A stretch of 64,000 nucleotides of DNA, from contig JAZNIU010000027.1 of NCBI GenBank assembly GCA_045577655.1, forward strand, positions 1,528 to 65,527, in the 5' to 3' direction. This stretch comes from Clostridia bacterium. Lineage in GTDB: Bacteria; Bacillota; Clostridia; RUG12999. The translations under genes and the position numbers were made by a program. Positions 544-21,736 of the stretch are shown in pieces (the stretch's first letter is position 1; the number at the start of each line of letters is the position of its first letter). A model generated the notes under the pieces. It had not been told where the DNA came from. It saw nothing but the letters and a program-made list of their open reading frames with translations, and ran no database searches.

Positions 544-547
544 TGTT

Positions 548-1375: not shown

Positions 1376-2190
1376 TTATGACGGAACTTCAAAGTAGGCT
1401 GCTCTGCGTTTTAAAATGGTTTCATGAATTGTGTAAGAAAGAAAATTTAGTTTATTATGCACAGGGGGGAACAGTTTTAGGGGCCGTAAGGCATAAAGGA
1501 TTTATTCCTTGGGATGATGATATTGATGTTGGAATGCCAAGAAAGGATTATGAAAAGTTTATAAAATTATCAGAGAAGGTAAATAAACATTCACAGTTTA
1601 TCATTGAATTTTCCGGCAAAAAAAAGGATTTTGTATATCCGTATTGTAAGATTTACGATCGGACAACAACTTTAGTGGAAAATACAAGATACAAGACAAA
1701 AAGGGGAATTTATATTGATGTATTTCCTATTGATGGAATAGGAAATACACTAGAAGAAAGTATTAACAACTTCAAAAAAGTGGACAAGATGATTAATTTG
1801 CTTTGCACAAGAGTTTGTGCGATACGAAAAGAAAGAAGTTGGTATAAAAACATTGCGATATTATTATCACGATGTATCCCCGAAAGTATGTTTAGTACGT
1901 TGGATTTAATGAAGAAAATTGAAACCTTAAGTAAGCAAAAAGAATACGACAAGTATGATTTTGTAGCAAATCTATGTGGCAATTGGCATGAAAAAGAAAT
2001 AATGGATAAGAAATGGGTTGAAAAGCCTATTCTATGCAAGTTTGAAAATATGCAGATTTTTATCCCCGGAAATTACGATGCATATCTTACAAGAATGTAT
2101 GGCGATTATATGAAATTGCCGCCGATAGAAAAAAGATGTACGCATCATGATTTTTTGTATATTGATTTGAATAAGTCATTTATGAAATAG
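1372..2190 (+). CDS. LicD-family phosphotransferase (phosphocholine / glycerol-phosphate / ribitol-phosphate transferase family)
   Basis: Carries the LicD nucleotidyltransferase-fold motif YAQGGTVLGAVRHKGFIPWDDDIDVGMPRKDY. The ATGA start overlaps the upstream stop. Confidence 0.75.
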   Translation: MIMTELQSRLLCVLKWFHELCKKENLVYYAQGGTVLGAVRHKGFIPWDDDIDVGMPRKDYEKFIKLSEKVNKHSQFIIEFSGKKKDFVYPYCKIYDRTTTLVENTRYKTKRGIYIDVFPIDGIGNTLEESINNFKKVDKMINLLCTRVCAIRKERSWYKNIAILLSRCIPESMFSTLDLMKKIETLSKQKEYDKYDFVANLCGNWHEKEIMDKKWVEKPILCKFENMQIFIPGNYDAYLTRMYGDYMKLPPIEKRCTHHDFLYIDLNKSFMK

Positions 2191-2199
2191 GAGGTTTTT

Positions 2200-2601
2200 A
2201 TGAAAAGAGTAATAACTTACGGAACATATGATTTGCTGCATTACGGACATATACTTTTGTTGAAACGAGCTAAGGAATTGGGGGACTATTTGATTGTTTG
2301 TCTTTCTACAGACGAGTTTAATGAAAATATGAAGAATAAAAAAACGTATTTTTCTTATGAACATAGAAAAAAACTTCTTGAAGCAGTTCGCTATGTTGAT
2401 CTGGTTGTTCCTGAAGAAAATTGGGAACAAAAAATTGATGATGTCAGAAAATATGACTGCGACATTTTTGTTATGGGGGATGACTGGAAAGGAAAATTTG
2501 ATTTTTTGAAAGATTATTGTGAAGTGGTGTATCTGGAGCGAACACCGGAAATATCTACAACTAAAATAAAGCAGGACTTAAAAATAGAGAGGGAAAAATA
2601 A
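2200..2601 (+). CDS. tagD: Glycerol-3-phosphate cytidylyltransferase (CDP-glycerol synthase)
   Basis: 133 aa. ITYGTYDLLHYGHILLLKRAKELGDYLIVCLSTDEFN is the HxGH cytidylyltransferase signature, with TagD size and layout. Confidence 0.8.
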   Translation: MKRVITYGTYDLLHYGHILLLKRAKELGDYLIVCLSTDEFNENMKNKKTYFSYEHRKKLLEAVRYVDLVVPEENWEQKIDDVRKYDCDIFVMGDDWKGKFDFLKDYCEVVYLERTPEISTTKIKQDLKIEREK

Positions 2602-2602
2602 T

Positions 2603-3439
2603 ATGGCTGAAAAAAGGTCCTTTGAAATTTTGTGTGCAACGATGCACCAAAATGACTTTTCTAAGATAAAAGAAATGAATATTCACTCTGATGTGGTTTT
2701 TGCAAACCAGTGTGACACTACCTCTTATGATGAATGCGAATTTGAAGGTAAAAAAGCAAAAATGATTTCCACTCAGACAAGAGGAGTAGGTGTGAACCGT
2801 AACCTTGCACTTTTGTATGCAAGCGGAGATGTTTGTCTTTTTGCAGATGATGACGTTGTTTATAGCGACGATATGGAAGAAAAGGTGGTATCAGAATTTG
2901 AAGATCACCCCGATGCTGACATTATAATTTTTCATTTTGAATCCGACAGCAAGGATAGGGTTCCGAAGAAATACCCGAAAACAAAAAAATGCGGGAGATT
3001 TTCAAAAATGTCCTGGGGCGCCGTGAGGGTTGCATTCAGACTTGAAAAGGTTAGAAGGGCAAATCTCTGGTTTACCACACTTTTTGGCGGTGGATGCATT
3101 TTCCCGTCGGGAGAGGACAGTATGTGGCTTAATGATGCTAAAAAAAGCGGGCTTAATTTTTATGTTTCAAAAGAAACAATAGGAAAGGTTTCTTATGCAA
3201 CATCCACATGGTTTACAGGATATGATGAGAAAATGTTTTACGGAAAAGGTGCTTTTTATAAAGCAATACATCCAAAAACGTTATTATTGTGGATGATTTA
3301 TTTTTGCCTCAGGACGAGAAAATTATCCGGAATGTCGGACTTTAACAAGTTGAAATGGATGATTTACGGTATTGATGGCTACAAAAAAATGATGACTTAT
3401 AATGATTACTGCAGTTATCTAAAAGAAAAAAATGGATGA
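2603..3439 (+). CDS. Glycosyltransferase (GT-A fold, GT2-like)
   Basis: Has a DxD-type motif (LFADDDVVYSDD) in a ~280 aa protein inside a polysaccharide locus. There is a 1-nt gap to tagD. Family assignment is tentative. Confidence 0.5.
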   Translation: MAEKRSFEILCATMHQNDFSKIKEMNIHSDVVFANQCDTTSYDECEFEGKKAKMISTQTRGVGVNRNLALLYASGDVCLFADDDVVYSDDMEEKVVSEFEDHPDADIIIFHFESDSKDRVPKKYPKTKKCGRFSKMSWGAVRVAFRLEKVRRANLWFTTLFGGGCIFPSGEDSMWLNDAKKSGLNFYVSKETIGKVSYATSTWFTGYDEKMFYGKGAFYKAIHPKTLLLWMIYFCLRTRKLSGMSDFNKLKWMIYGIDGYKKMMTYNDYCSYLKEKNG

Positions 3440-3458
3440 TTAAAGAAGGAATAAAAAT

Positions 3459-4529
3459 ATGAAGTATTCGATTATTACCATTCATCATATTCATAACTTC
3501 GGGTCTGTTTTTCAGGCATATTCTCTTTACAAGTTTCTGTCACAAAAGGGGTATGATGCTGAAATTATTGATTATCAGCCGTCATACTACAAAACCGGCA
3601 GGAATAAATTAAAATCACTTGTCGGCAAGATGATAAATCTTAAAGATTATATAAAAAGAGAAAAAAAGTTTGCACGGTTTATAAAAAAAAATGACAGGCT
3701 GTCTTCTGAAAAGTTCACTGATTACAAGCAACTGTGCAAATATTATAACAAAAAAGAGAATGTTTTTATTGCAGGTGGAGACCAGCTCTGGAACAATTAT
3801 CATCCATGCGGAAATGATGAAGCATACAAACTTTTGTTTACCGACAGTAAAAGAAAAATTGCCTATGGAACAAGCATGGGCAGAGATAATTTTTCTGAGG
3901 ATGATCTGAAAAAACTGGCAGAACAAACGGCAGATTTTAAGCAAATTATGATTCGCGAAAAATCGACTGTTTCGATGCTTCAAAAACACACTAAGACCAC
4001 TGTTATGCATGTAATAGATCCTGTTGGCCTTATAGATATTAAAGAGTTTGAAAAGCTTGCCGTAAAGCCGGATATAAAAGAGCCTTATGCGGTTATGTAT
4101 CTGGCAGATTCGGGGGAACTCCTAGATGAAGCTGTGAAAATTCTTTCGGAAAAACTAAACCTTAAAGTTGTTCATATTTGTGGGTTCAGAAAAAAATGTG
4201 AGTGCGACTTTTTCCTTAAAGACTCGGGACCTGAAGAAATTTTAGGATATATTATGAATGCCGAGTTTGTTATTTCAGCCTCGTTTCATGCAACCATGTT
4301 TTCGATTTTGTTTAACAAGCCGTTCGCATCACTGCTTCCCGGAAGCAATACCAATGCGAGAATTGAAGATATTCTTCGATTGTGCGGGCTTGAGGACAGA
4401 ATTGTCAGGGATGAACAGTCACTCGAATGCATAACAAATCAAATTGACTGGGAACAGGTCAACGAAAAAATAGAAAAATTAAAAATTGAGTCGGCCAGTA
4501 AACTGACAGAGGCACTTAATAATATTTGA
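3459..4529 (+). CDS. Polysaccharide pyruvyl transferase (CsaB/WcaK-like)
   Basis: The N-terminus YSIITIHHIHNFGSVFQAYSLYKFL matches the PF04230-type start (hxNYGaxLQ). ~350 aa. Found in an EPS context. Confidence 0.75.
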   Translation: MKYSIITIHHIHNFGSVFQAYSLYKFLSQKGYDAEIIDYQPSYYKTGRNKLKSLVGKMINLKDYIKREKKFARFIKKNDRLSSEKFTDYKQLCKYYNKKENVFIAGGDQLWNNYHPCGNDEAYKLLFTDSKRKIAYGTSMGRDNFSEDDLKKLAEQTADFKQIMIREKSTVSMLQKHTKTTVMHVIDPVGLIDIKEFEKLAVKPDIKEPYAVMYLADSGELLDEAVKILSEKLNLKVVHICGFRKKCECDFFLKDSGPEEILGYIMNAEFVISASFHATMFSILFNKPFASLLPGSNTNARIEDILRLCGLEDRIVRDEQSLECITNQIDWEQVNEKIEKLKIESASKLTEALNNI

Positions 4530-4543
4530 AAAGAGAATGAACT

Positions 4544-5761
4544 ATGAATGTAATATATTTATCAAGCGGTTGTTCGAATGAAAAATTTGCTGAACTGCGG
4601 AACAAAGGTATCACAAAAAAGATGCCGCAGGCACAAAAATATCACCACCTTCTGATGGAGGGAATAGCGGAAAATATTGATGGTGAACTGGTGTCCATTT
4701 CGGCAATCCCTGTGAATCGACAGTGGACAAAACAGGTGTTGTTTCGCAGAGAAGAGGAAATTGTCGGTAAAATACGATATATTTATGACTCCTTTATCAA
4801 TTCTATGTTTTTAAGGCAGTATACTCGATATATTGGAGCATTAAAAAATATTAAAAAGCTTTGCAGTAAGAATAATGACTGGGTGATTATCTGTGACGTT
4901 TTGAATCAGTCTTTGGCTAATGCCGCCCGCAAGGCAGGTAAGAAATATCATATTCCTGTGATTGGTATTGTTACGGATGTGCCGGGACACTCTGCTGGGG
5001 CACGTATAAAAAACCAGCCTTTTATAATCAGAAAAATAGCCAAACTGTCATCAAAAATGGCACAGGCCAACCTGCATAAATACAATGCTTATTTGCTTCT
5101 TACTGAAGAAATGAACAAGGTTGTTAATGGCAAAAACAGACCATACATTGTACTTGAAGGTCAGTCGGATGTTAATATGTCTTGCAGGGAAAATAAAATA
5201 GAAAACAAGACAGACCCAAAGATTATTATGTATGCCGGCGGCATTCATACAGAATTTGGGATAAAACGGATGGTAAATGCATTTGTTTCTGGCGGGTTTG
5301 AAGGATGGCAACTACATATTTACGGCGATGGAAACTACCAGAATGAGTTGAAAGATTTAGCAGAAAAAAATGAACAGATAAAATACTTTGGGATAAGACC
5401 AAATAGTGAAATTGTTGAAAACCAGCTTAATGCAAGTTTGCTTGTTAACCCCAGACTTACCGACGCGGAGTATGTTAAATATTCATTCCCTTCCAAGACA
5501 ATGGAATGCATGGCTTCTGGAACCCCGCTTCTGACAACAAAGCTTCCGGGGATGCCCCCGGAATATTATGATTTTGTATATTTCTTTGAAGAAGAAACCG
5601 AGGAAGGTATGCTTAAGGCTTTCCGCAAGGTTCTGTCAGTTCCGGCAGAAGAAATGCATTCGTTTGGTATGAAAGCCAAAGAGTTTGTACTTACAGAAAA
5701 AAATAATATCTGCCAGGCTAAAAAATTGGTTGATTTTGCAGCTGGGTTGAGGGTGAATTAG
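4544..5761 (+). CDS. Glycosyltransferase family 1 (GT4, retaining)
   Basis: C-terminal GT-B motif EYVKYSFPSKTMECMASGTPLLTT (the E-x7-E region). ~400 aa. Confidence 0.8.
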   Translation: MNVIYLSSGCSNEKFAELRNKGITKKMPQAQKYHHLLMEGIAENIDGELVSISAIPVNRQWTKQVLFRREEEIVGKIRYIYDSFINSMFLRQYTRYIGALKNIKKLCSKNNDWVIICDVLNQSLANAARKAGKKYHIPVIGIVTDVPGHSAGARIKNQPFIIRKIAKLSSKMAQANLHKYNAYLLLTEEMNKVVNGKNRPYIVLEGQSDVNMSCRENKIENKTDPKIIMYAGGIHTEFGIKRMVNAFVSGGFEGWQLHIYGDGNYQNELKDLAEKNEQIKYFGIRPNSEIVENQLNASLLVNPRLTDAEYVKYSFPSKTMECMASGTPLLTTKLPGMPPEYYDFVYFFEEETEEGMLKAFRKVLSVPAEEMHSFGMKAKEFVLTEKNNICQAKKLVDFAAGLRVN

Positions 5762-5763
5762 AT

Positions 5764-6975
5764 ATGGCAAATGAAAAAAGTATTATACAAATAAATACTT
5801 TGGATTGCATGGGATGTGGTCTGTGTTCGGAGATTTGCCCAAAACGGTGCATATCAATGATTCCGGATGATGAAGGATTTCTTGCTCCAAAGATTGATGC
5901 AGAAATGTGTATTGATTGTGGGGTATGCCTTAAAAACTGCCCTGCAGCCAATGCGGCAGACAGTTTGTTTTTCGGCGAGCCTCGTAGTTATTTCTGCGGA
6001 ACTATAAAGGATGATGATATTCTGCTTAAAAGCTCATCCGGGGGTGTTTTTGGTGTTCTTGCGAAGCATATTCTTGGCAAAAAAGGCTATGTTTGTGGAT
6101 GTATTTATAATGATGATATGATGGCGGTTCACGCCGTTACCAATGACAACGCTGTTGTAGAGAAAATGTATGGATCCAAGTATGTGCAGAGTAGAAGTGA
6201 CGAGTGTTTTGCTGAAATAAAAGACAAGCTTGATTTGGGTGAGAAATTGCTTTTCACGGGTACTGCATGCCAGATTGCTGCTCTTCGCATATATCTTCGG
6301 AAAAAATATGACAATCTGATTTGTGTTGAGATTTTATGTCATGGAGTACCGAGCCCGATGTTTTTCCGAAAGTATGTGAAATATCTGGAGAAAAAACTGC
6401 ACGGAAGGATTGAAAGCGTTCAGTTTCGCAACAAGGAAAAGCATGGATGGGGAAGCGAACACAGAACCTGTGTGGTCTATAATAAGAACGGAAAACAGAA
6501 AAAATACAGACCAATATTACCTGCATATTTCAGTGCCTTTTTCTATGGCATAAATTTGAGAGAATCCTGTTACCTTTGCAAGTTTGCGAAACCTGACAGG
6601 ATAGCCGACCTTACCATAGGGGATTTTTGGGGCTCGTGGGAAAAATTCGGCAAAAGGTTTACAGAAGGTATTTCGGTTGTTGGCATAAACAGTGAAAAAG
6701 GGCAAGACCTTATTGGAGAAGTGAAAGAAGAGTTTTCTCTCTTTGAAATACTTGGGAAAAATGAAGCTGTGCGTTCAAACGACAATTTTGAACATCCTAT
6801 TAAACGTCCACCGGAACGCGATTGTTTTTATAATGGTTTTGAGAAAAAATACAAGGGCGCCTGGAAAAAAGCATATTTTACAAAAACCTACCGAAAGAAA
6901 ACATTAGCTTCAGTTTACGGGGCGCTGGTGCCTGCAAAATGGCGATATCTTAGACATAAGCTAAAGAAGAGATAA
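5764..6975 (+). CDS. Coenzyme F420 hydrogenase/dehydrogenase beta-subunit-like iron-sulfur protein of the kind found in polysaccharide loci
   Basis: Two N-terminal 4Fe-4S ferredoxin motifs (CMGCGLCSEICP and CIDCGVCLKNCP), followed by a ~300 aa FrhB/FdhB-like body. Members of this family are commonly paired with pyruvyl transferases. Confidence 0.65.
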   Translation: MANEKSIIQINTLDCMGCGLCSEICPKRCISMIPDDEGFLAPKIDAEMCIDCGVCLKNCPAANAADSLFFGEPRSYFCGTIKDDDILLKSSSGGVFGVLAKHILGKKGYVCGCIYNDDMMAVHAVTNDNAVVEKMYGSKYVQSRSDECFAEIKDKLDLGEKLLFTGTACQIAALRIYLRKKYDNLICVEILCHGVPSPMFFRKYVKYLEKKLHGRIESVQFRNKEKHGWGSEHRTCVVYNKNGKQKKYRPILPAYFSAFFYGINLRESCYLCKFAKPDRIADLTIGDFWGSWEKFGKRFTEGISVVGINSEKGQDLIGEVKEEFSLFEILGKNEAVRSNDNFEHPIKRPPERDCFYNGFEKKYKGAWKKAYFTKTYRKKTLASVYGALVPAKWRYLRHKLKKR

Positions 6976-6982
6976 AGAGAAT

Positions 6983-7528
6983 ATGACAAATTTAAATAAA
7001 CAAAGAAATAAAAAGATGATACTCGCAGCCATGTTTCTGGCTCTGGGAATGGCGCTTCCTTTTCTTACCTCCCAGGTCAAAGAAATAGGCGATTCGCTGC
7101 TTCCAATGCATCTTGCGGTTATGCTGTGCGGGATTATTTGCGGCAGCAGATACGGGCTTGTTGTTGGACTGCTTTTACCAGTTTTAAGAGGTTTTTGTTT
7201 TGGAATGCCAAGACTTTACCCTAATGCTATGTGGATGTCACCCGAACTTGCTGTTTATGGGTTTTCAGTTGGATTTTTTTATTCGGTTTTACCGAAAAAC
7301 AGAAAAACCTCCGTTTATATTTCACTTCTGGGAGCTATGCTGTGCGGCAGGATAATCTGGGGGATTTTAAAGGCGGTTATTCTCGGCGTTTCGGAAAAAC
7401 AGTTTACAATAGCTATGTTTGTTGCAGAGGGGTTTGTTGATGCAATCCCCGGCATTATACTGCAACTTTTGTTAATACCGCTCATTGTTTCGCTTGTGAA
7501 AAAGGAGAATGCAAATGGACAAAATTAA
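6983..7528 (+). CDS. Small polytopic membrane protein, possibly an ECF-transporter S (substrate-capture) component
   Basis: 181 aa with about 5-6 TM helices. LPMHLAVMLCGIICGSRYGLVVGLLLP resembles the H-x-P/A...G-[PS]-x-x-G loop of ECF S components. Only 7 nt after the upstream stop; overlaps the next gene. Confidence 0.35.
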   Translation: MTNLNKQRNKKMILAAMFLALGMALPFLTSQVKEIGDSLLPMHLAVMLCGIICGSRYGLVVGLLLPVLRGFCFGMPRLYPNAMWMSPELAVYGFSVGFFYSVLPKNRKTSVYISLLGAMLCGRIIWGILKAVILGVSEKQFTIAMFVAEGFVDAIPGIILQLLLIPLIVSLVKKENANGQN

Positions 7529-8798
7529 GATATCTTTTCCTTATGGGAAAGGAAAAATGGAATATGAGTTTAATAAAAAAGAACTTGAAGGTGTTTTAAC
7601 ATCCGGGATAGAAGAATATATTCCTGAGGCAGATGAGGAAACTCTTGTAAGAAGGGCGCTTGAAAACCCGGTTGGTTCCAACCGTTTGTGCGAGCTTGCT
7701 AAAGGGAAAAACAAGATTGTTATTATTGCAAGTGACCATACGCGACCCGTTCCCAGCAAGGTTATTATGCCTGCTATGCTTGAAGAAATAAGAAAAGGCA
7801 ACCCTGATGCCGACATAACAATTCTTATTGCAACAGGTTGTCACAGAGGAACTACTAAAGAAGAACTTATTTACAAGTTTGGGGAAGAAATTGTTAAGAA
7901 TGAAAATATCTACATTCACGACTGCGACGAAAGAGAAAAACTTGAAAATTTAGGAAAACTTCCGTCAGGTGGCGAATGCGAAATAAATTCTATAGCAACA
8001 CAAGCTGATTTGCTTGTTGCGGAAGGGTTTATTGAACCACATCTTTTTGCAGGATATTCGGGTGGCAGGAAAAGTGTTCTGCCGGGTATTGTAAGCCGTG
8101 AGACAGTGCTTGCGAACCATTGTGCAGAGTTTATTGACAGTGAAAATGCAAGAACGGGAGTTCTTGAAAACAATCCCGTTCACAAGGATATGCTCTGGGC
8201 AGCAAAGGCTGCCAAGCTTACATTTATTGTAAATGTTGTTTTAAACGGAGAAAAAAAGGTTATTTACGCTGTTGCGGGAGACCTTGAAAAAGCTCATAAA
8301 AAGGGAACCGACTTTTTATCAACTCTGTGCGGAGTAAAAGGGACCGGGGCAGATGTTGTAATTACATCAAACGGTGGTTATCCGCTTGACCAGAATGTCT
8401 ACCAGGCGGTAAAAGGGATGACGGCAGCAGAAGCGGCAGTTAAAGGGGGAGGCGTAATAATTATGCTTTCCGAAACTTCTGACGGGTCAGGAAGCGACCA
8501 TTTTTATAATCTTCTCTCGGAGAAAGAAGATGTCGGTGAAATGATGAAAACTCTTCTTTCCCAGAAAAGAACCGAAACGGTTCCGGACCAGTGGCAGGCG
8601 CAGATTCTTTTGAGAATTCTGATGAAATCAACTGTTATATATATTTCCGAAATGGAAGATGAATTGGTTGAAAAAATGCATATGATACCTGCCAAATCTA
8701 TTGAAGAGGCACTTATAAAGGCAAAAAGAATATTGAATAAAGATAGTATTAAAATTACAGCGATTCCGGACGGAATTTCGGTTGTTGTTAAAAAATGA
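7515..8798 (+). CDS. LarA-family nickel-pincer-nucleotide-dependent 2-hydroxyacid racemase/epimerase homologue (DUF2088)
   Basis: LarA-type motifs are present: IIASDHTRPVP, ATGCHRGTT, GYSGGRKS (the Lys equivalent to the NPN-tethering lysine) and a downstream catalytic-type His (ANHCAEF). The ORF track starts at 7509, but the ATG at 7515 has better RBS spacing. Confidence 0.8.
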   Translation: MDKIKISFPYGKGKMEYEFNKKELEGVLTSGIEEYIPEADEETLVRRALENPVGSNRLCELAKGKNKIVIIASDHTRPVPSKVIMPAMLEEIRKGNPDADITILIATGCHRGTTKEELIYKFGEEIVKNENIYIHDCDEREKLENLGKLPSGGECEINSIATQADLLVAEGFIEPHLFAGYSGGRKSVLPGIVSRETVLANHCAEFIDSENARTGVLENNPVHKDMLWAAKAAKLTFIVNVVLNGEKKVIYAVAGDLEKAHKKGTDFLSTLCGVKGTGADVVITSNGGYPLDQNVYQAVKGMTAAEAAVKGGGVIIMLSETSDGSGSDHFYNLLSEKEDVGEMMKTLLSQKRTETVPDQWQAQILLRILMKSTVIYISEMEDELVEKMHMIPAKSIEEALIKAKRILNKDSIKITAIPDGISVVVKK

Positions 8799-8808
8799 GG
8801 AGAAATAA

Positions 8809-9942
8809 ATGAATATTTTAGTTGCAATAGATTCCTTTAAAGGAAGCCTTACTTCTCTTGAAGCGGGGAATGCTGCAAGTGAAGGAATAAAAAGATGTTT
8901 TCCTGATGCTGATATAAAAATTTTGCCCATAGCAGACGGCGGCGAGGGAACTGTTCAGGCTCTTGCCTATGGTCTGGGCGGAGAAATACAAAAAGTTTCT
9001 GTTAAAAATCCTCTGGGTGAAGAAATTGTTGCAGAATATGGTATGGTTGGGAAAACTGCAATAATCGAAATGGCAGCTGCTGCAGGAATTATTCTGATTG
9101 ACAAAACGCAGCTTAACCCAATGGTGACAACCACTTACGGAGTGGGACAGATAATCAGGGACGCAATTTCAAAAGGTTGCAGAGAATTTATTATCGGCAT
9201 TGGCGGAAGTGCAACCAACGACGGCGGTGCAGGAATGCTTCAGGCGCTCGGCTATCAGCTCCTTGACAAAGACGGAAATGAAATTTCGCTTGGAGCAAAA
9301 GACATAGGCAAAATTGCTCAGATAAAAGATAACAAAGTAGTTCCGGAACTTTCTGAATGTGTGTTTAATATTGCGTGTGATGTTACAAATCCTTTGTGCG
9401 GAGAAAACGGTTGCAGTGCAATTTTCGGCCCGCAAAAAGGCGCAAAAAAAGAAGATATCAAGGTGATGGATGATTCACTTTATCATTTTGCAGAAGTAAC
9501 AAAACAAAAGTATAAAAATACTGATATGAATTTCCCCGGAGCGGGAGCTGCAGGTGGACTTGGATTTGCTTTTATGGCGTTTCTGAATGGCAAACTGCAG
9601 TCGGGTATCAATCTTATACTTGAAAAAATTGAGATTGAAAAATATATAAAAGAAGCTGACCTTGTTATTACGGGTGAAGGAAAAATTGACAGCCAGACAA
9701 TTATGGGGAAAGCCCCGACGGGAATTGCAAAGCTTGCAAAAAAATATGACAAAAAGGTTATAGGTTTTTGCGGATGCACAACAAGAGATGCGGGAATTTG
9801 CAATCGGCACGGAATTGATGCTTTTTTCCCGATTGTCAGGTCTGCCTGCACCATAGAAGAGGCGATGGACAGGGAAAATGCGGCAGCAAATATGGCAGAT
9901 TGTGTTGAACAGGCAATGCGCCTTTTTGCTTTTTCAAAATAA
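8809..9942 (+). CDS. Glycerate kinase (GlxK/GarK family)
   Basis: MNILVAIDSFKGSLTSLEAGNA...ILPIADGGEGTV is the canonical glycerate kinase N-terminus. 377 aa. RBS GGAGAAATAA precedes the start. Confidence 0.85.
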   Translation: MNILVAIDSFKGSLTSLEAGNAASEGIKRCFPDADIKILPIADGGEGTVQALAYGLGGEIQKVSVKNPLGEEIVAEYGMVGKTAIIEMAAAAGIILIDKTQLNPMVTTTYGVGQIIRDAISKGCREFIIGIGGSATNDGGAGMLQALGYQLLDKDGNEISLGAKDIGKIAQIKDNKVVPELSECVFNIACDVTNPLCGENGCSAIFGPQKGAKKEDIKVMDDSLYHFAEVTKQKYKNTDMNFPGAGAAGGLGFAFMAFLNGKLQSGINLILEKIEIEKYIKEADLVITGEGKIDSQTIMGKAPTGIAKLAKKYDKKVIGFCGCTTRDAGICNRHGIDAFFPIVRSACTIEEAMDRENAAANMADCVEQAMRLFAFSK

Positions 9943-9957
9943 AATCAAAAAAAACTA

Positions 9958-9986
9958 TTGAAATATGGTAAAAAATATTATATAAT
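9958..9986 (+). promoter_or_regulatory. Sigma-A type promoter (TTGAAA - 17 nt - TATAAT) for the TAXI-TRAP operon
   Basis: Consensus -35 at 9958-9963 and -10 at 9981-9986 with a 17-nt spacer. It lies inside the 5' extension of the 9958 ORF call, so the true CDS start is 10021. Confidence 0.6.
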
Positions 9987-10020
9987 AATATATTATACTA
10001 ATAAAATATGGAGGATTATC

Positions 10021-10980
10021 ATGAAAAGAATAGTAGCTATGCTTATGGTGCTTGTAATGGCACTCGCTGTTGCTTCCTGCGGAAGCACAACAGGAACAAA
10101 AATGACAATGGGTACCGGCGGTACAGCAGGTACATATTATGGTTACGGCGGCGTTCTCGGACAGTATATCAAAGACAAAGCCGGCATTGGTGTAACAGTT
10201 GTTTCAACTGATGGTTCAAAAGCTAATATCCAGGGTATTGAAGCTGGAAACTATCAGCTCGGAACAGTTCAGTCTGACGTTATGTCTTATGCTTGGGAAG
10301 GCACACGCTCTTTCACAGAAGAAGGCAAAACAACTTCTTTCCGTACAGTTGCAGGGCTTTATGCAGAAGCAGTTCAGCTTGTTACAATGGACCCGTCCAT
10401 CAAATCTGTTGCAGACCTTAAAGGTAAAGCGGTTTCCATCGGTGCTCCCGGATCCGGCGTTTATTTTAACGCAGTTGACGTGCTTACAGCAGCAGGTCTT
10501 ACAGAAAACGACATTAAAGCACAGTATCAGTCTTTCGCAGACAGTGCAGATGCTTTAAAGGATGGAAAAATTGACGCAGCATTTATCGTTGCAGGTCCTC
10601 CGACACCGGCAATTACAGAGCTTTGCACAACAAACAGTGCATACCTCGTTCCTATCGACGGTGCAATTGCTGAAAAACTTATGAGTGACTGTCCTTTCTA
10701 TTCACTCTACACAATTCCTGCAGGTACATATAACGGCCAGGCAGAAGATGTTGTTACAGTAACAGTTAAAGCAACTCTCATCGTAAGTGAATCTGCATCT
10801 GAAGAAGATGTTTACAAATTGACAGCAGCAATTTTTGATAACATTGATGCTATTTCTGCAGAAAATGCAAAAGGTAAAGAACTTAGCCTTGAAAATGCAA
10901 CTGAAGGTCTTACAATTCCTTTCCACGCAGGTGCTGCAAAATATTTCTCAGAAAAAGGTATTACAGTAGCAGTCGATTAA
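10021..10980 (+). CDS. TAXI-family TRAP transporter solute-binding lipoprotein
   Basis: Lipoprotein signal (LAVASCGS). MTMGTGGTAGTYYGYGGVLGQYI is the TAXI signature. RBS GGAGGATTATC ATG. Confidence 0.85.
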   Translation: MKRIVAMLMVLVMALAVASCGSTTGTKMTMGTGGTAGTYYGYGGVLGQYIKDKAGIGVTVVSTDGSKANIQGIEAGNYQLGTVQSDVMSYAWEGTRSFTEEGKTTSFRTVAGLYAEAVQLVTMDPSIKSVADLKGKAVSIGAPGSGVYFNAVDVLTAAGLTENDIKAQYQSFADSADALKDGKIDAAFIVAGPPTPAITELCTTNSAYLVPIDGAIAEKLMSDCPFYSLYTIPAGTYNGQAEDVVTVTVKATLIVSESASEEDVYKLTAAIFDNIDAISAENAKGKELSLENATEGLTIPFHAGAAKYFSEKGITVAVD

Positions 10981-10996
10981 TTTATTCGCATATTTG

Positions 10997-11030
10997 TGGC
11001 TGCGGCGAAAAGTTCGTCGCAGCCATTTTA
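10997..11030 (+). terminator. Inter-cistronic stem-loop plus T-tract between the TRAP binding-protein and permease genes (a partial terminator or attenuator)
   Basis: TGGCTGCGGCGA aaagt TCGTCGCAGCCA forms a 12-bp stem (one G-U pair), followed by TTTTAGT. Confidence 0.55.
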
Positions 11031-11057
11031 GTATAACAGAACCAAGGGGGAAAACGG

Positions 11058-13007
11058 ATGTTATTTGGGAAAAAAGCAGAAACTGAAAACAGACCGATGG
11101 ACTTACAAGAGGTTATGCAGAAATTTGACCGCGAGTCCAACACCAGAATCTGGGAAGGTAAGGCGAAAATTGCAGTTAACTTCATTCTGGCTTCTTTTTC
11201 ACTTTTCTGCCTGTATGTAACTCTTTTTGCAAGCTGGTTGGAGGAACTCAGACTTACAACCTTTGTTGCATTTATTGTTTTTATAGGTTACCTTATGTAT
11301 CCTGCTAAAAAGGGTATCCAGAAGGTAAACTATATGCCGTGGTATGATGTTCTTCTTATGCTGCTTGGCACAGGAGCATTTCTTTACTATTCGGCAAATG
11401 CTATTACAATCATTCAGCAGGGAAGTAATTTTGAATGGTACCAGGTTGTAATAGGTATTATCGGCATAATTTCACTTATAGAGGTTTGTCGCAGAAGCGT
11501 TGGGCTGCCCATTGTCATTGTGGCACTCTGCTTTGTGGCTTATGCACTTATCTGGGGGCTTTCAAATCCATCCCTCTGGAAAAAACTTAACTATTTAACA
11601 CACTATCTGTTCTATAGCAAAGAAGGCATACTCTCAACACCAATAAACGTTTGCTCAAAATTTATTGTTGTGTTTATAATATTCGGTGCATTTTTGGAAA
11701 GAACGGGCATAGCTGACTTCTTCATCAAAATTGCAAACACAATTGTCGGCGGTTTTTCAGGCGGACCTGCAAAAGTTGCGGTTGTAGCAAGTGCTCTTGA
11801 AGGCATGGTTTCCGGTTCTTCTGTTGCAAACACAGTTGGTTCCGGCTCGGTTACAATACCACTTATGAAGAAAACCGGATACAAACCAGAGTTTGCGGCA
11901 GCGGCAGAAGCATCTGCCTCAACCGGTGGACAGATTATGCCGCCGATTATGGGTGCGGCAGCTTTCCTTATGGCAGACTATATCGGAGTTCCGTACAGTA
12001 ACATTGTTGTAAGAGCGATTTTGCCGGCGGTACTATATTTTGCAGGCGTGTTCATTACAGTTCACCTGGAAGCAAAAAAAGAAGGCTTGCGCGGAATTCC
12101 TAAAGAAGACCGTCCAAAACTTGTGCCGCTTTTAAAACAGATTTATCTGCTCCTTCCGCTTGTTCTTCTTATTTACCTTGTAGGTACAAGCAAAAACTCA
12201 ATTCAGTATGCTGCAGCAATTTCAATAATTGCGGCTATAGTTGTAAGTTTGTTTAACAAAGGAAGCCGTATAACACCAAAACGTTTCTTTGAAGCACTTG
12301 CAGCAGGCGGCCAGGGTATGATTACCGTAGCTGCAGCCTGCGGTGTTGCAGGAATAATTGCAGGAACAATCACAATGACCGGTCTTGCAAACATAATGAT
12401 TAACGGAATAGTTGCTCTTGCAGGAAACCAGGTTATAATTGCTCTGGTGCTCACAATGCTTTGTTGCATAGTTCTTGGTATGGGTGTTCCGACAACTGCT
12501 AACTATTGTATTATGGCAGCTACCTGTGCTCCCATTTTAACCCGTATGGGTGTACCCACTATTGCTGCACACTTCTTTGTGTTTTACTTTGGTATAGTGG
12601 CAGACCTCACGCCACCCGTTGCCCTTGCGGCGTATGCTGGTGCGGCTATCGGTCAGGCAAACCCAATGAAAACAGCGTTCACAGCAACAAAGCTTGCAAT
12701 TGGCGCGTTTATTGTTCCGTATATGTTTGCGCTTAATCCGAAAATGTTGATGATAGATGCAACGGCGTTTGAAATTATTCAGATAAGCATAACTTCACTT
12801 ATAGGGATTTTTGCAGTTTCCGCATCACTTGAAGGCTATTTGCTGGACAAAATGTCTTGGTATCAGAGGTTGATTTCTCTTGCCGGAGGTCTTCTACTTA
12901 TTGATGCCGGACTTTATACTGATATTGGTGGAATAAGCCTTGTGGCGATAATACTCATTTTGCAGTTTTTCTCAGGCAGAAAGAGAAAACTTGCAGCAAA
13001 TATATAA
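11058..13007 (+). CDS. TRAP transporter fused permease (TAXI-type DctQ-DctM fusion)
   Basis: 649 aa polytopic protein. The N-terminus ...QKFDRESNTRIWEGKAKIAVNFILASFSLFCLY is characteristic of TAXI fused permeases. Confidence 0.9.
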   Translation: MLFGKKAETENRPMDLQEVMQKFDRESNTRIWEGKAKIAVNFILASFSLFCLYVTLFASWLEELRLTTFVAFIVFIGYLMYPAKKGIQKVNYMPWYDVLLMLLGTGAFLYYSANAITIIQQGSNFEWYQVVIGIIGIISLIEVCRRSVGLPIVIVALCFVAYALIWGLSNPSLWKKLNYLTHYLFYSKEGILSTPINVCSKFIVVFIIFGAFLERTGIADFFIKIANTIVGGFSGGPAKVAVVASALEGMVSGSSVANTVGSGSVTIPLMKKTGYKPEFAAAAEASASTGGQIMPPIMGAAAFLMADYIGVPYSNIVVRAILPAVLYFAGVFITVHLEAKKEGLRGIPKEDRPKLVPLLKQIYLLLPLVLLIYLVGTSKNSIQYAAAISIIAAIVVSLFNKGSRITPKRFFEALAAGGQGMITVAAACGVAGIIAGTITMTGLANIMINGIVALAGNQVIIALVLTMLCCIVLGMGVPTTANYCIMAATCAPILTRMGVPTIAAHFFVFYFGIVADLTPPVALAAYAGAAIGQANPMKTAFTATKLAIGAFIVPYMFALNPKMLMIDATAFEIIQISITSLIGIFAVSASLEGYLLDKMSWYQRLISLAGGLLLIDAGLYTDIGGISLVAIILILQFFSGRKRKLAANI

Positions 13008-13026
13008 ATAAATTTGAGGTGTTATT

Positions 13027-13518
13027 ATGAAAACAATTAAAGCTGTTAAGCTTACAAACGAAGAATTTGCTCCTTTTGGACAGTTCTACACAATGACAGA
13101 ACCCGATGGCTACGCTCTTTGCGGAGAAATACATAAATTTTTTCCGGACAGAGTTGTCGGCGACAGCAATCACAGAATAGGTTTTTCGCCCATTGTTGTA
13201 AAAAAACCGGAAAAAATGGTTATTACTCAGCAGGAATATCATACAACAACCTGGGAAATGATTCTTCCGCTTGATGATGATATGATACTTCACTGTGCAC
13301 CTGCATCTGCAGGAACACCTGTTCCCGATTATGTAAAGGCATTTATTGTTCCTAAAAACACTCTTGTAAAGATGAATGCGGCAATCTGGCATCTTGCACC
13401 GCTTCCGGCAAATAATGACAGCCTTACAGCTATGATTATCTTGCCTGAATGCACCTATGCAAATGACTGCACAGTTGTTGACCTTAAAGAAGAGGAACAG
13501 TTTGAAATTGTAAAATAA
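13027..13518 (+). CDS. Ureidoglycolate lyase (AllA)-like cupin protein
   Basis: 163 aa. The N-terminus IKAVKLTNEEFAPFGQF resembles the AllA start (L-x-PLT-x-EAF-x-x-[FY]G). Assigned from memory of the family and not verified. Confidence 0.35.
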   Translation: MKTIKAVKLTNEEFAPFGQFYTMTEPDGYALCGEIHKFFPDRVVGDSNHRIGFSPIVVKKPEKMVITQQEYHTTTWEMILPLDDDMILHCAPASAGTPVPDYVKAFIVPKNTLVKMNAAIWHLAPLPANNDSLTAMIILPECTYANDCTVVDLKEEEQFEIVK

Positions 13519-13547
13519 ATTTGTGCTGATTATATGAGGTAAAAGCT

Positions 13548-14882
13548 ATGAAACTGCCGTATGGAGTAAACAGAATAATTACCATACTGGGCGAAGGCGG
13601 ATATGAGGCCTTCGCTGTGGGCGGTTGTGTGCGTGATATGATAATGGGGAAAGAACCCGTAGATTATGATATTACAACAAATGCTTTGCCACAGCAGATA
13701 AAAAACTGTTTTGCCGGGTTTAAAACAATTGACACAGGAATTAAACACGGAACTGTTACTGTTGTTTTAAATGACGAAAACTTTGAAATTACAACCTACA
13801 GGGTTGACGGAGAATACACTGACAACAGAAGACCGGACAATGTTCGGTTTTCTTCTTTAATCAGCGAGGATTTGTCCCGCAGAGATTTTACTGTAAATGC
13901 AATGGCGTATAGTGAGGATGAGGGCCTTGTTGATTTGTTTGATGGTGAAAAGGACATTAAAAACAAGGTTATTCGTTGTGTTGGTGATCCGGACAAACGT
14001 TTTAACGAAGACGGACTTCGTATTTTAAGAGCCTTACGATTTGCTTCCACCCTAGGTTTTGAAATTGAAAAGAAAACTGCAGAAGCAATAAAAAGAAACA
14101 AAGGACTTCTTAAAAACCTTTCGGCAGAAAGAGTTTTTTCAGAATTTAAAAAGCTTGTTTGCGGAGAAAATGCTGCAAAAATTATTAGTGATTATAAAGA
14201 GGTAATAGGCGTATTTCTACCGGAAATTCTGCCCATGATTGATTTTGTTCAGCGCACGAAATATCATAACTTAAATGTTTTTGACCACACTGTTAAAGCG
14301 TTTGAAAAAACAGAAAAAGATGTTGTTTTAAGACTTGCTGCTCTTTTGCACGATGTTGGCAAACCGGCGGCTGTAACAACCGACGAGGCAGGGGTGGACC
14401 ATTTTAAAGGTCATGCTGTCATCAGTGCAGAAATGGCTGAGACAGTGTTAAAACGACTAAAAGCAGACAATAAAACGATAGAATCGGTAAAACTGCTTAT
14501 ACTTTATCATAGTGCAAAAATTCTGCCCGAAGAAGCAGATTTAAAAAAACTAATTTCTGAAATTGGGTTTGAGCACGCAAAAAATCTGATGAAGCTTAAA
14601 ATTTCCGACACCTATGCAAAAGCATATCCTTATTGCGAAGATAATACTCCAAGAGAAAATCTTGAAATTATAAAAAGAATTGAAAAAAGCGGGGACCCTG
14701 TTTTTATAAAAGACTTAAAAATAAACGGGACCGACATTATGCAAATGGGTGTGAAAGGTCAGGCAGTCGGAAAGATTTTAAACCTGCTTCTTGATTTGGT
14801 GATTTTAAAGGAAATTGAAAATGAAAAAGGCTTGCTTTTGGAGCAAGCTGAAAAATTTATCTGTAACGGGAGGGAAAAATGA
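13548..14882 (+). CDS. cca: CCA-adding tRNA nucleotidyltransferase with HD domain
   Basis: Pol-beta head GGCVRDMIMGKEPVDYDITT and RDFTVNAMAY; an HD domain lies further on (LLHDVGKP). Confidence 0.85.
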   Translation: MKLPYGVNRIITILGEGGYEAFAVGGCVRDMIMGKEPVDYDITTNALPQQIKNCFAGFKTIDTGIKHGTVTVVLNDENFEITTYRVDGEYTDNRRPDNVRFSSLISEDLSRRDFTVNAMAYSEDEGLVDLFDGEKDIKNKVIRCVGDPDKRFNEDGLRILRALRFASTLGFEIEKKTAEAIKRNKGLLKNLSAERVFSEFKKLVCGENAAKIISDYKEVIGVFLPEILPMIDFVQRTKYHNLNVFDHTVKAFEKTEKDVVLRLAALLHDVGKPAAVTTDEAGVDHFKGHAVISAEMAETVLKRLKADNKTIESVKLLILYHSAKILPEEADLKKLISEIGFEHAKNLMKLKISDTYAKAYPYCEDNTPRENLEIIKRIEKSGDPVFIKDLKINGTDIMQMGVKGQAVGKILNLLLDLVILKEIENEKGLLLEQAEKFICNGREK

Positions 14883-16624
14883 AGAATAGCAGTAGTGGAA
14901 GATTTGCCAGATTTTTAACTTATTACATGCCATATCTTAAAATTATTATTCTGGACTTGCTTTGTGCCGGTCTGTCAACTGTTTGTGAACTTGTTTTTCC
15001 TATGATTGTCAGATATATTACCGACACAACACTTTCCGGCGGGCAAGCGCTTCTTTTTTCTTCTGTTGTGAGAATAGGTGCGGTTTACCTGTTTTTAAGA
15101 CTGGTTGATGTCGGCGCAAATTATTATATGTCAAATGCCGGTCATGTTATGGGAGCAAGAATGGAAACAGATATGCGTAAAGATTTGTTTAACCATTTGC
15201 AGAAACTCTCATTTAATTATTATGACAATGCCAAGGTTGGACAGATAATGTCCAGAATCACAAGCGATTTGTTTGACATCACAGAGTTTGCTCATCACTG
15301 CCCCGAAGAGTTTTTCATCGGAGCAATAAAAATAATCGGTTCGTTTGTAATCCTTATCAGAATAAACGTTTTGCTCACAGTTGTAATTTTCCTTTTGCTG
15401 CCTCTTATGTTTGTTTCAAGGCTTGCATTCAGGAAAAAAATGAAACGGGCTTTTAAAGAACAAAGGGAGCAGATAGGTGAGCTTAATGCTGAAGTTGAAG
15501 ATTCTCTTCTTGGTATCAGAGTTGTTAAAAGCTTTGCAAACGAAGACGTTGAGATAGAAAAGTTTAAAAAAAGCAACGTCAAGTTTCTGGAGAAAAAGAA
15601 AAATGCCTATAAGTATATGGCACTTTTCCATTCGGGAACAAGACTTTTTGACGGAATAATGTATATTGCCGTAATTATGGTAGGAGCCCTTCTTGTAATA
15701 AACGGCAAAATAAGCCCCGGTGATTTGATTGCGTTTGTGTTATACATCCAGACACTTATTGCATCGGTCAGAAGAGTTGTTGAATTTACCGAACAGTTTG
15801 AACGGGGTATAACGGGTATTGACCGTTTTTGTGAGATTATGGAAGAGCCGGTGGACATTTTTGACCTGCCGGATGCAAAAGAAATCTCGGATGTTCAAGG
15901 AAACATTACGTTTAAAAATATCAGTTTCAAATATTCGGACAATCTTGAAAATGTTCTGACAAACATAGACATAGACATCAAAAAAGGCGAGAATATTGCT
16001 GTTGTAGGCCCGTCAGGCGGGGGAAAAACAACTCTTTGCAGTCTTCTGCCAAGATTCTATGATATAACAGATGGCGAAATTTTTATAGACGGCGTAAATA
16101 TTAAAGATATTAAAATAAAATCCCTGCGCGAAAATATAGGTATTGTCCAGCAGGAAGTTTATATGTTCAGCGGAAGCGTGTTTGATAATATTGCCTACGG
16201 GAAACAGGATGCAACGCCTGAAGAAGTGGAAGAAGCTGCAAAAGCCGCCGGTGCTCACGAGTTCATTATGTCGCTTAAAGACGGATATAACACCTATGTC
16301 GGGGAACGGGGTGTCAAGCTTTCGGGAGGTCAGAAACAGAGAATTTCAATAGCAAGACTGTTTTTGAAAAATCCGCCGATTCTTATTCTGGACGAAGCCA
16401 CAAGTGCTCTGGACAATGAAAATGAGCTTATTGTTCAGAATTCTCTTGAACGCTTGTCAAAAGGCAGGACAACCTTTACCATAGCTCATAGGCTGACCAC
16501 CATACGTAATGCAACAAGAATTCTGGTGCTGACCGATGAGGGTATAATAGAAGAGGGTTCCCATGAGGAACTTATGCGGCGTGACGGGGAATATGCAAAA
16601 CTTTATAAACTATATACGAGATAA
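14879..16624 (+). CDS. ABC transporter, fused permease/ATP-binding protein (MsbA/multidrug-exporter type)
   Basis: Six-TM N-terminal domain. Walker A GPSGGGKTT, ABC signature LSGGQKQR, Walker B ILILDEATS. The ATGA start overlaps the cca stop. Confidence 0.9.
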   Translation: MKNSSSGRFARFLTYYMPYLKIIILDLLCAGLSTVCELVFPMIVRYITDTTLSGGQALLFSSVVRIGAVYLFLRLVDVGANYYMSNAGHVMGARMETDMRKDLFNHLQKLSFNYYDNAKVGQIMSRITSDLFDITEFAHHCPEEFFIGAIKIIGSFVILIRINVLLTVVIFLLLPLMFVSRLAFRKKMKRAFKEQREQIGELNAEVEDSLLGIRVVKSFANEDVEIEKFKKSNVKFLEKKKNAYKYMALFHSGTRLFDGIMYIAVIMVGALLVINGKISPGDLIAFVLYIQTLIASVRRVVEFTEQFERGITGIDRFCEIMEEPVDIFDLPDAKEISDVQGNITFKNISFKYSDNLENVLTNIDIDIKKGENIAVVGPSGGGKTTLCSLLPRFYDITDGEIFIDGVNIKDIKIKSLRENIGIVQQEVYMFSGSVFDNIAYGKQDATPEEVEEAAKAAGAHEFIMSLKDGYNTYVGERGVKLSGGQKQRISIARLFLKNPPILILDEATSALDNENELIVQNSLERLSKGRTTFTIAHRLTTIRNATRILVLTDEGIIEEGSHEELMRRDGEYAKLYKLYTR

Positions 16625-21382: not shown

Positions 21383-21736
21383 ATGATAAAAAAAGCAGAT
21401 GTTATTATTGCAATCATTGTTCTTGTTATTTCTTTTGGCGGATATTTTGCCACAGGTGCAGGTTTTAAAGCTGAAGAAAAAAATGTTGTGATTGAAGTGG
21501 ACGGGCAGCTGTTTGCAACATATTCCATGACTGAAACAAGAGAAGTTGATGTTAAGGGACACAACAGGGTTGAAATTACCCCTGAATATGTCAGAGTGAT
21601 ATATGCCGATTGCCCGGACAAGCTTGATGTCCGCCAGGGGAAAATTTCTTCTGTAGGCAGCATAATTGTATGTCTTCCAAACAGAATGACAGTCAGAATA
21701 ACGGGGGAATCTGAGATTGACGCACTCAGCTATTAA
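21383..21736 (+). CDS. NusG domain II-containing protein
   Basis: 117 aa with an N-terminal TM helix. Sits in the conserved position upstream of the Gx transporter gene in Clostridia. Confidence 0.45.
   Translation: MIKKADVIIAIIVLVISFGGYFATGAGFKAEEKNVVIEVDGQLFATYSMTETREVDVKGHNRVEITPEYVRVIYADCPDKLDVRQGKISSVGSIIVCLPNRMTVRITGESEIDALSY

Follow-up and report, generated by a model that had tools for sequence, protein, structure and literature searches.

A recurrent gene cassette of a LarA-type racemase and a class I glycerate kinase with an ECF S component, found behind a polysaccharide operon in a Clostridia bacterium

A described genomic setting with which the racemase gene reported here can be compared is the lactate-oxidation operon lctBCD(E)F of Acetobacterium woodii, which we take to encode EtfB, EtfA, an FAD-dependent lactate dehydrogenase (LDH), a lactate permease and a lactate racemase. 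S components of energy-coupling factor (ECF) transporters, a second gene type of the locus, are high-affinity micronutrient carriers. For the racemases themselves, whose cofactor is a nickel-pincer nucleotide (NPN), a 2024 study of the LarA superfamily reported that every tested enzyme of the lactate racemase (LAR) group also racemises glycerate (PMC11770544). LarAH43 of Enterocloster asparagiformis reached a kcat/KM of 1.14e5 M-1 s-1 with glycerate and 8.3e4 M-1 s-1 with lactate, LarA1 and LarAH51 favoured lactate 10-17-fold, and the active-site difference singled out was T359 in LarA1, E357 in LarAH51 and Q359 in LarAH43 (PMC11770544). Enzymes of the group also racemise 2-hydroxybutyrate and 2,4-dihydroxybutyrate, with activities 10-1000 times lower for the Q- and T-types; the physiological significance was stated as unknown, and no kinase was mentioned (PMC11770544). 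Here we describe a member of this group, larA, which lies between an ECF S-component gene and a class I glycerate kinase gene (glxK) in a 64,000-nt stretch of the genome of a Clostridia bacterium (contig JAZNIU010000027.1, positions 1,528 to 65,527; hereafter the window, from whose first nucleotide all positions are counted). The three genes form a self-contained, portable cassette, which is found again in dozens of Clostridia from the gut and through which L- or DL-glycerate probably enters glycolysis. While the enzymes it encodes are new representatives of families already known, no description of the recurrent pairing of racemase and kinase was found in the literature that could be searched.

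The recurrence of the cassette emerged from a survey of one genome per species, which gave 80 loci, 79 of them with a LarA relative at 34-98% identity. Clustering of all open reading frames (ORFs) within 7 kb of LarA in these 79 loci revealed three recurrent partners: class I glycerate kinase (GlxK), the S component, and the trio of EtfB, EtfA and FAD-dependent LDH. A GlxK gene adjoins LarA on the same strand in 25 of the 79 loci (24 of the 67 in which the sequence extends 1.5 kb or more downstream), and PF02595 was confirmed in a distant GlxK representative. The Etf/LDH trio stands beside LarA in 16 loci, often with a lactate permease and a GntR regulator alongside. Both contexts exclude each other, as among the 62 loci with both flanks available 22 carry GlxK, 16 carry the lactate genes and none carries both.

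The LarA-linked GlxKs belong to four lineages with 32-45% identity between lineages, and the LarAs they accompany come from no fewer than five clades. Their genes occur in the orders ECF-S-LarA-GlxK, LarA-ECF-S-GlxK and GlxK-LarA, or with a 2-kb insert between LarA and GlxK, and the flanks of the cassette are unrelated (rhamnose isomerase RhaA, an integrase, DnaG, formate-tetrahydrofolate ligase, a sulfatase). We interpret this variety of gene orders, kinase lineages, racemase clades and flanks as the mark of a small cassette that is kept for its function and does not merely reflect synteny passed on by descent. An earlier note on this DNA had stated that no LarA has been paired with a glycerate kinase. 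This holds for the searchable literature, in which neither LarA with glycerate kinase nor 'glycerate racemase' yielded anything relevant, no description of a racemase upstream of a class I glycerate kinase was found, and the supplementary material to the 2020 paper on the LarA superfamily contains neither COG1929 nor glycerate kinase. It does not hold for genomes, where the pairing is common.

The larA product displays the full Lar_N plus LarA_C architecture (PF09861, 2e-72, 243 bits; PF21113, 4e-61, 206 bits). Against NF033504 (Ni_dep_LarA), the equivalog model for 'nickel-dependent lactate racemase', it scores 618.8 bits with a cut-off of 460, whereas its scores with the malate racemase models (382 vs 500; 302 vs 462) and with the LarAH10 model (330 vs 540) do not reach the respective cut-offs. 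Among solved structures, the nearest are those of the lactate racemases of Thermoanaerobacterium thermosaccharolyticum, with 2e-152 for 2YJG, and Lactiplantibacillus plantarum, with 1e-135 for 5HUQ/8EZF. Aligned with these, the window LarA shows the conserved blocks SDHTRPVPS, ATGCHRG, EPHLFAGYSGGRKS, ANHCAEF and GGYPLDQNVYQAVKGM, and the DHTRP, GCHRG and GGRK motifs, which the earlier note had listed for the LarA homologue, are present and coincide with the catalytic and NPN-binding residues of the solved enzymes. In L. plantarum numbering, the catalytic H108 and H174, the NPN-tethering Lys184 (K184), the nickel ligand His200 (H200) and the carboxylate-binding R75, Y294, Q295 and K298 all have their counterparts in the window LarA; the loss of catalytic residues, which the earlier note had named as refuting its proposal, is not seen. 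The window enzyme shares the full-length two-domain architecture and these functional residues with the two solved enzymes. It differs from them at the specificity position, which is E or T there and Q here, and its gene has no adjoining larBCE, larD or lar(MN)QO, its partners being instead a glycerate kinase and the S component of an ECF transporter.

By profile scores and alignment, the window LarA is a genuine member of the LAR group of NPN-dependent racemases. A grouping with bona fide lactate racemases had previously been regarded as an argument against a role in glycerate metabolism. The grouping is real, but no longer contradicts such a role, because LAR-group enzymes racemise glycerate as well (PMC11770544). 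At the position singled out in that study, the window LarA has Gln (residue 361; PDQWQAQI vs PDQWTAQI in L. plantarum), the counterpart of T359 in LarA1 and of Q359 in LarAH43. Dual lactate/glycerate racemase activity is therefore expected from its place in the LAR branch together with the Gln shared with LarAH43, and the enzyme is predicted to act on both acids. Its likeness to LarAH43 concerns the branch and this published residue; the difference is that the window larA has a kinase partner, which suggests a role for the activity.

Counted across the loci, this position is Q in 12, M in 12 and E in none of the GlxK-linked LarAs, whereas in those of the lactate operons it is E in 11, Q in 6 and M in none. 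This correlation between residue and context is suggestive only. It fits a model in which E- and T-type enzymes would be lactate specialists and Q-type enzymes would be dual, and the M-type LarAs may be further specialised. The Met-type LarAs form a clade of their own (L022, L024, L026, L027, L028, L030, L031, L035, L038, L040, L041 and L074), in which GlxK always follows, with the S component in between in five loci, and usually then galactose mutarotase (GalM) and a type-2 galactose-1-phosphate uridylyltransferase (GalT). No characterised enzyme with Met at the T359-equivalent position was found in the LarA literature examined.

The partner kinase is matched by PF02595 over its full length (1-371/372, 485.6 bits, 1.2e-145) and scores 452 bits against TIGR00045 (cut-off 168). 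It remains below the equivalog cut-offs of both the glycerate 2-kinase GlxK (NF007668, 381 vs 686) and the 3-kinase GarK (NF007401, 342 vs 625). According to these family matches it is a class I glycerate kinase (GlxK/GarK family), without assignment to the 2-kinase or the 3-kinase equivalog, and the identity proposed for it in the earlier note stands, as does that of the ECF-S-like protein (PF12822, see below). GlxK and GarK of E. coli, which act in the glyoxylate and the glucarate/galactarate pathways, belong to the same family and the match to it is full length. Unlike in those pathways, the window holds no glyoxylate carboligase, tartronate semialdehyde reductase or glucarate genes, and the upstream enzyme is a racemase.

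The S-component gene is the second recurrent partner of larA. Its product matches PF12822 (ECF_trnsprt) with 48.8 bits (cut-off 30.7) and has no NCBIfam family match. Structure modelling with database homologues resulted in an AlphaFold2 model with pLDDT 88.6 and pTM 0.85, for which the best Foldseek matches in the PDB are the S components RibU, ThiT, FolT and PanT (probability 1.0, TM 0.55-0.67); the metal-type NikM/CbiM structures 4M5B and 4M58 match worse (TM 0.45-0.52, probability about 0.5). A profile search against PDB sequences recovered a marginal RibU match only. Helix 1 carries an AxxxA motif with A16 invariant and A20 nearly invariant, and P41-M42-H43, M75-P76, M85, E88, Y92, R123 and Q161 are likewise invariant. 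Judged from the modelled fold, the protein is an ECF S component of group II, the vitamin type. It shares with RibU, ThiT, FolT and PanT the six helices, the AxxxA motif in helix 1, the small size and the lack of dedicated ATPase and T genes nearby, and differs from them in its marginal sequence similarity to the solved members and in its genomic partners LarA, LarC and DUF3842. A metal-type S component of the NikM/CbiM kind was considered and rejected, given the absence of a PF01891 match, the N-terminus MTNLNK in place of a metal-binding Met-His end, the poor structural match and the absence of partner N/Q/O genes.

In the LarA survey the S component stands beside LarA in 17-18 loci and in two gene orders, and usually overlaps the larA start. 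GlxK is present in nine of these contexts, the lactate genes in two, and neither in seven. A reciprocal scan of metagenome contigs with the S-component family alignment returned 80 loci. The closest relatives of the window protein (at least 53% identity) lie directly upstream of LarA in six loci, and in eight more of the 80 loci (L094, L103, L106, L113, L115, L120, L138 and L148) the gene directly downstream of a family member encodes LarC (PF01969, 1e-136), the cyclometallase that inserts nickel during NPN synthesis. A repressor of the CsoR/RcnR family (PF02583; His-rich N-terminus, x-C-H-C fingerprint) is the next gene in L113, L115 and L120, and precedes the S-component gene in L117; beyond it, nothing obviously nickel-related was seen among the neighbours of the S-component-LarC pairs. 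For P0183, which also belongs to the family, the neighbourhood contains no Lar gene. Comparison with Rfam of the 20 loci with the longest upstream gaps detected no known riboswitch upstream of the S component, only two tRNAs and one borderline small RNA match; the latter ('Enterococcus sRNA 64', L090:20-84, upstream of an S-component gene) scores 44.5 bits with a gathering threshold of 44.3 and is probably due to chance.

The S component accompanies LarA in GlxK, lactate and bare contexts alike, which argues against a bulk importer of the substrate. The suggestion of the earlier note that it takes up the LarA substrate is consequently not favoured, also in view of the relatives beside LarC. 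As LarA and LarC are two genes of the NPN system and both are its neighbours, the cargo more probably serves the cofactor than the substrate; the S component would then supply a micronutrient for the NPN cofactor system, either a pyridine precursor or nickel. The recurrent coupled position beside LarA, and beside LarC with a CsoR/RcnR-type metalloregulator, leads us to the idea of a separate S-component subfamily, whose members would take up nickel, a pyridine precursor or an intermediate of the cofactor. On a lactate racemase with an ECF S component the literature searched contained nothing relevant; to that extent, an S component linked to LarA and LarC is undescribed.

Other features of the family were noted in passing. 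A tandem second S-component copy occurs in about 25 of the 80 metagenome loci. DUF3842 (PF12953, about 135 aa) adjoins members of the family in 18 loci, often with two tandem S copies (among them L090, L095, L101, L108, L110, L118, L126, L127, L131, L133, L136, L144, L147, L151, L153, L156 and L158). The window itself encodes, at 21717-22244, a second small multi-pass membrane protein of 175 aa, which resembles an S component as far as its translation tells; its neighbours are, on one side, a small unannotated ORF that comes after a long ORF taken as a peptidase U32 and, on the other, a gene taken as maf, these identities having been read from translations.

From the conserved pairing we infer a pathway for L- or DL-glycerate, with a direction of flux towards glycolysis, in which the racemase would be followed by a D-glycerate kinase and a TAXI-type transporter of the TRAP (tripartite ATP-independent periplasmic) class, encoded directly downstream, would be the likely importer. 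We put the probability of this reading at about 0.55. Glycerate would enter through a carboxylate importer, in this case plausibly the TAXI-TRAP system. LarA loaded with NPN would equilibrate L- and D-glycerate by the proton-coupled hydride transfer of its family, and the class I kinase would phosphorylate D-glycerate to 2- or 3-phosphoglycerate and thereby pull the equilibrium into glycolysis. Together, LarA and GlxK would allow the cell to use L-glycerate or racemic glycerate in vivo. The earlier note had offered three readings of the locus, the first being that a glycerate racemase supplies D-glycerate to the kinase. It is the best supported of the three, in view of the conserved adjacency, the four GlxK lineages and the LarAH43-type Gln.

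The involvement of the TAXI-TRAP system is plausible because a TRAP importer beside LarA-GlxK recurs independently, although as DctPQM and not as TAXI, in a metagenome-assembled genome (MAG) of Dorea. That locus (L067, 1013-10501) encodes a PucR/CdaR-type regulator, DctP, DctQ, DctM, an alpha/beta hydrolase, a Q-type LarA, a fusion protein and GlxK. Its CdaR/PucR-type regulator recalls the sugar-diacid regulon of E. coli. The fusion protein, of 690 aa, joins a PucR-type helix-turn-helix region to a DctP solute-binding domain, an unusual combination of regulator and binding protein. A further reading of the earlier note was that the polysaccharide genes adjoin the cassette by coincidence and that its genes belong with the TRAP module downstream. 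Its first part agrees with our results, and the TRAP module is a plausible partner given the recurrence in Dorea; on the other hand, the TAXI-TRAP genes have a promoter-like site of their own.

Several points weigh against the glycerate pathway or against parts of it. The locus shows no evident source of L-glycerate, and the D-specificity of the window GlxK is assumed by analogy with characterised family members. Of the LarAs nearest to the window LarA (70-77% identity), some stand with GlxK and others with Etf/LDH, and Gln at the specificity position occurs also in the six lactate-operon LarAs counted above. Counted by independent clades, residue and context are only weakly associated, with E present in about 4 of the 10 clades from lactate contexts and in 0 of the 7 with GlxK. 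In a column-wise scan of GlxK-linked against lactate-linked LarAs the T359-equivalent position ranks 8th, the higher-ranking columns being variable and possibly tracking phylogeny. The TAXI-TRAP genes are found beside LarA-GlxK in the window species group only. In the 64-kb window tblastn detected no LarC, and its translated ORFs include no obvious LarB, no obvious LarE and no EcfA/A'/T energising module. Considering that the fold is of the vitamin type and that an Arg, a Glu, a Tyr and a Gln are invariant, the cargo of the S component would lean to an organic ligand, for example a pyridine precursor, with nickel as another possibility; this is a lead and a guess. In L. plantarum the substrate channel LarD presumably also lies beside larC, and adjacency to LarC is thus compatible with substrate transport. 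Furthermore, the preference of LarAH43 for glycerate is just 1.4-fold, which makes lactate an equally good substrate in vitro (PMC11770544).

The main rival is a plain lactate racemase, in which LarA would interconvert D- and L-lactate for use or production and GlxK would be an unrelated, inherited neighbour. Such an enzyme would agree with the NF033504 score above cut-off, with the high similarity to the T. thermosaccharolyticum and L. plantarum enzymes and with the good use of lactate by Q-type enzymes (PMC11770544). The exact context of the lactate-oxidation operon is also shared by 16 related loci, whose LarAs are up to 75% identical to the window LarA, and relatives at 70-75% identity (L003, L004, L015 and L020) lie in EtfBA/LDH operons. 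In the window, by contrast, a tblastn search over its whole length with representatives of these proteins detected no Etf, no LDH and no lactate permease. Moreover, LarA and GlxK occur together across four GlxK lineages, several orders and unrelated flanks, and never with lactate genes, a pattern that is hard to fit by inheritance alone. We therefore regard a plain lactate racemase as unlikely, yet as the most serious competitor of the glycerate pathway.

It is still less probable that the cassette and the TAXI-TRAP system handle another very short 2-hydroxy acid, such as 2-hydroxybutyrate or 2,4-dihydroxybutyrate, with the specificity of the kinase shifted accordingly. We know of no member of the class I glycerate kinase family that acts on either of these two acids. 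A shifted kinase would be in line with a GlxK below both E. coli equivalog cut-offs, and an entire clade of GlxK-linked LarAs is characterised by Met at the specificity position. LAR-group enzymes do racemise both acids, but the Q- and T-types do so with the much lower activities cited at the outset (PMC11770544).

A salvage of the cofactor appears very improbable. Here a pyridinium riboside, related to NPN but dephosphorylated, would be imported by the S component and phosphorylated again by the GlxK-family kinase for the loading of LarA. This would be analogous to known pairs of vitamin transporter and kinase, the three genes stand together in two gene orders, and the S-component family is linked to LarA and LarC in a window without larB, larC and larE. 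The kinase, however, is a full-length, high-scoring class I glycerate kinase, and the proposal has no known precedent. Most LarA-GlxK loci, too, are without the S component, and most S-component-LarA loci without GlxK.

The remaining alternative concerns the exopolysaccharide (EPS) genes upstream of the cassette. The genes up to position 6975 encode, in this order, Bac_transf (C-terminal part), a GT2 glycosyltransferase, LicD, a cytidylyltransferase, a second GT2, the pyruvyl transferase, a GT1 glycosyltransferase and the FrhB-like iron-sulphur (FeS) protein. A tblastn search with all window proteins against the 79 species-level loci detected EPS genes upstream of larA in one further locus only (L080). 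Around LarA in the other loci, about 78 in number, no EPS gene was found, and the pyruvyl transferase, GT1 and FrhB-like genes adjoin LarA nowhere else. L080 and L001 are contigs of one MAG and belong to the same or a closely related species as the window, with 93% DNA identity for L001 and 98.8% in the overlap for L080. By blastn, L080:5313-5917 corresponds to window 6981-7585 with 98.8% identity; upstream nothing can be aligned, downstream all is conserved. The EPS genes of L080 (895-5318) encode a GT2, a member of the UDP-glucose dehydrogenase family, a GT4 and a GT1, without a pyruvyl transferase or FrhB-like gene, and one EPS gene abuts the ECF-S gene with a 4-nt overlap.

Because the EPS genes of L080 differ and homology starts at 6981, we interpret the ECF-S, larA and glxK genes as the conserved flank of a strain-variable EPS locus and not as a part of it. 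The pyruvyl transferase, GT1 and FrhB-like genes (3459-6975) are context and no members of the cassette. The position of the cassette behind the polysaccharide operon appears to be an accident of the window species, with a linkage that is positional and not functional. The earlier note had asked whether a gene order from the pyruvyl transferase and the FrhB-like gene through the ECF-S gene to larA and glxK is conserved among relatives; the first two genes adjoin LarA in none of them, and LarA-GlxK is conserved instead. Its remaining reading, a lactyl, glyceryl or phosphoglycerate substituent of the EPS made with the FrhB-like protein and the pyruvyl transferase, had in its favour the tight spacing to the EPS operon, the lack of a convincing terminator or promoter-like site at 5786-9958 of the + strand, and the EPS gene that abuts the ECF-S gene in L080 as well; it loses its basis as the cassette is no part of the EPS gene set, is found in many non-EPS contexts and is kept at about 99% identity in L080 without those two genes, and we consider it highly doubtful.

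The arrangement that had suggested this linkage is nonetheless present in the window (Table 1). All substantial ORFs at 49-9942 lie on the + strand, with gaps of -20 to +19 nt. The FrhB-like stop codon and the ECF-S ATG are 7 nt apart, the 3' end of the ECF-S gene overlaps larA by 14 nt, and larA is followed after 10 nt by glxK, which is preceded by GAGGAG. By its overlap the ECF-S gene is translationally coupled to larA. For larA we favour the ATG at 7515 over that at 7509, since GGAG at 7504-7507 fits the former and the database protein P0001 has 427 aa; look-ups by exact sequence returned no record for the window LarA in either its 429-aa or its 427-aa form. The terminator scan of the + strand found no convincing intrinsic terminator before 9942. 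The terminator-like matches in 1-9942 are weak and all intragenic (3503, 3859, 5544, 7141 and 8766), and the number of such matches is not enriched (17 observed vs 11.8 +/- 3.8 in shuffles, within 1.4 standard deviations). The 79-nt AT-rich gap between glxK and the TAXI gene contains the promoter-like match, then GGAGG (10011) and then the ATG at 10022. This promoter is plausible by position rather than proven, because promoter-like matches in general occur at chance level (43 vs 42.1 in shuffles). The ORF, terminator and promoter scans thus bear out the tight, one-stranded array described earlier, without a convincing terminator up to 9942 and with the first good promoter-like site at 9958, and in the window species the ECF-S, larA and glxK genes are probably transcribed by read-through from the polysaccharide operon.

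Table 1. Features of the cassette and its surroundings; positions refer to the window unless stated otherwise.
Feature	Position	Strand	Details
Polysaccharide pyruvyl transferase	3459-4529	+	PF04230
GT1 glycosyltransferase	4544-5761	+	PF00534
FrhB-like FeS protein	5764-6975	+	PF04432 + Fer4; two 4Fe-4S motifs
Breakpoint of nucleotide homology, window vs L080	6981..6982		2 nt before ECF-S ATG; blastn
ECF-S-like gene	6983-7528	+	181 aa
larA	7509/7515-8798	+	429/427 aa by start chosen
glxK	8809-9942	+	377 aa
Sigma-70-like promoter match TTGAAA-17-TATAAT	9958-9986	+	11/12; top match in 1-16000
TAXI-family TRAP solute-binding lipoprotein	10022-10980	+	PF16868 9e-80; TIGR02122 322 bits
Hairpin	10996-11026	+	14 pairs (8 G-C); only strong + strand stem-loop in 1-16000
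TRAP fused DctQM-type permease	11058-13007	+	TIGR02123 664 bits; PF06808
Small cupin-like protein	13027-13518	+	PF04115 7.6e-8; PF16161 (DUF4867) 2.3e-7; below all NCBIfam cut-offs
S-component match in LarC loci (positions of those loci)	~4001-4530 in most		LarC directly downstream

For the TAXI gene, the start at 10022 and not the TTG at 9958 is indicated by the GGAGG at 10011 and by a lipoprotein signal ending in ...VASCGS. The hairpin between the binding-protein and the permease genes is probably an intra-operon attenuator or a stabiliser of the mRNA. The small cupin-like protein, whose gene begins 19 nt after that of the TRAP permease, is weakly similar to ureidoglycolate lyase. The rest of the 64-kb window, as read from translations, is occupied by housekeeping genes (mreBCD, minCD, rho, ffh, groESL, potABCD, asnS and others).

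The locus also carries a warning for annotation. Capsule and EPS loci are hot spots of recombination with conserved flanks, and at their 3' edge an assignment of function by position can mislead. For the LarA family, a conserved operon partner that would consume only one enantiomer gives the glycerate racemisation observed in vitro in 2024 a concrete and testable role, and the split between GlxK and Etf/LDH contexts, with Q or M in the one and E in the other, represents a natural dataset on specificity within the family. With LarA and LarC as its companions, the S component could reveal a new supply line for the nickel-pincer cofactor. As a joint proposition we suggest, tentatively and with more doubt than confidence, that LarA-GlxK is the first physiological pathway of NPN-dependent glycerate racemisation, in gut and rumen Clostridia, in which the E versus Q/M residue would tune lactate against glycerate, and that the S component represents a new ECF subfamily for the nickel-pincer cofactor system. 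If the glycerate pathway is true, a route of L-glycerate salvage would be added to the carbon metabolism of the abundant, mostly uncultured Oscillospiraceae and Acutalibacteraceae of the rumen and gut.

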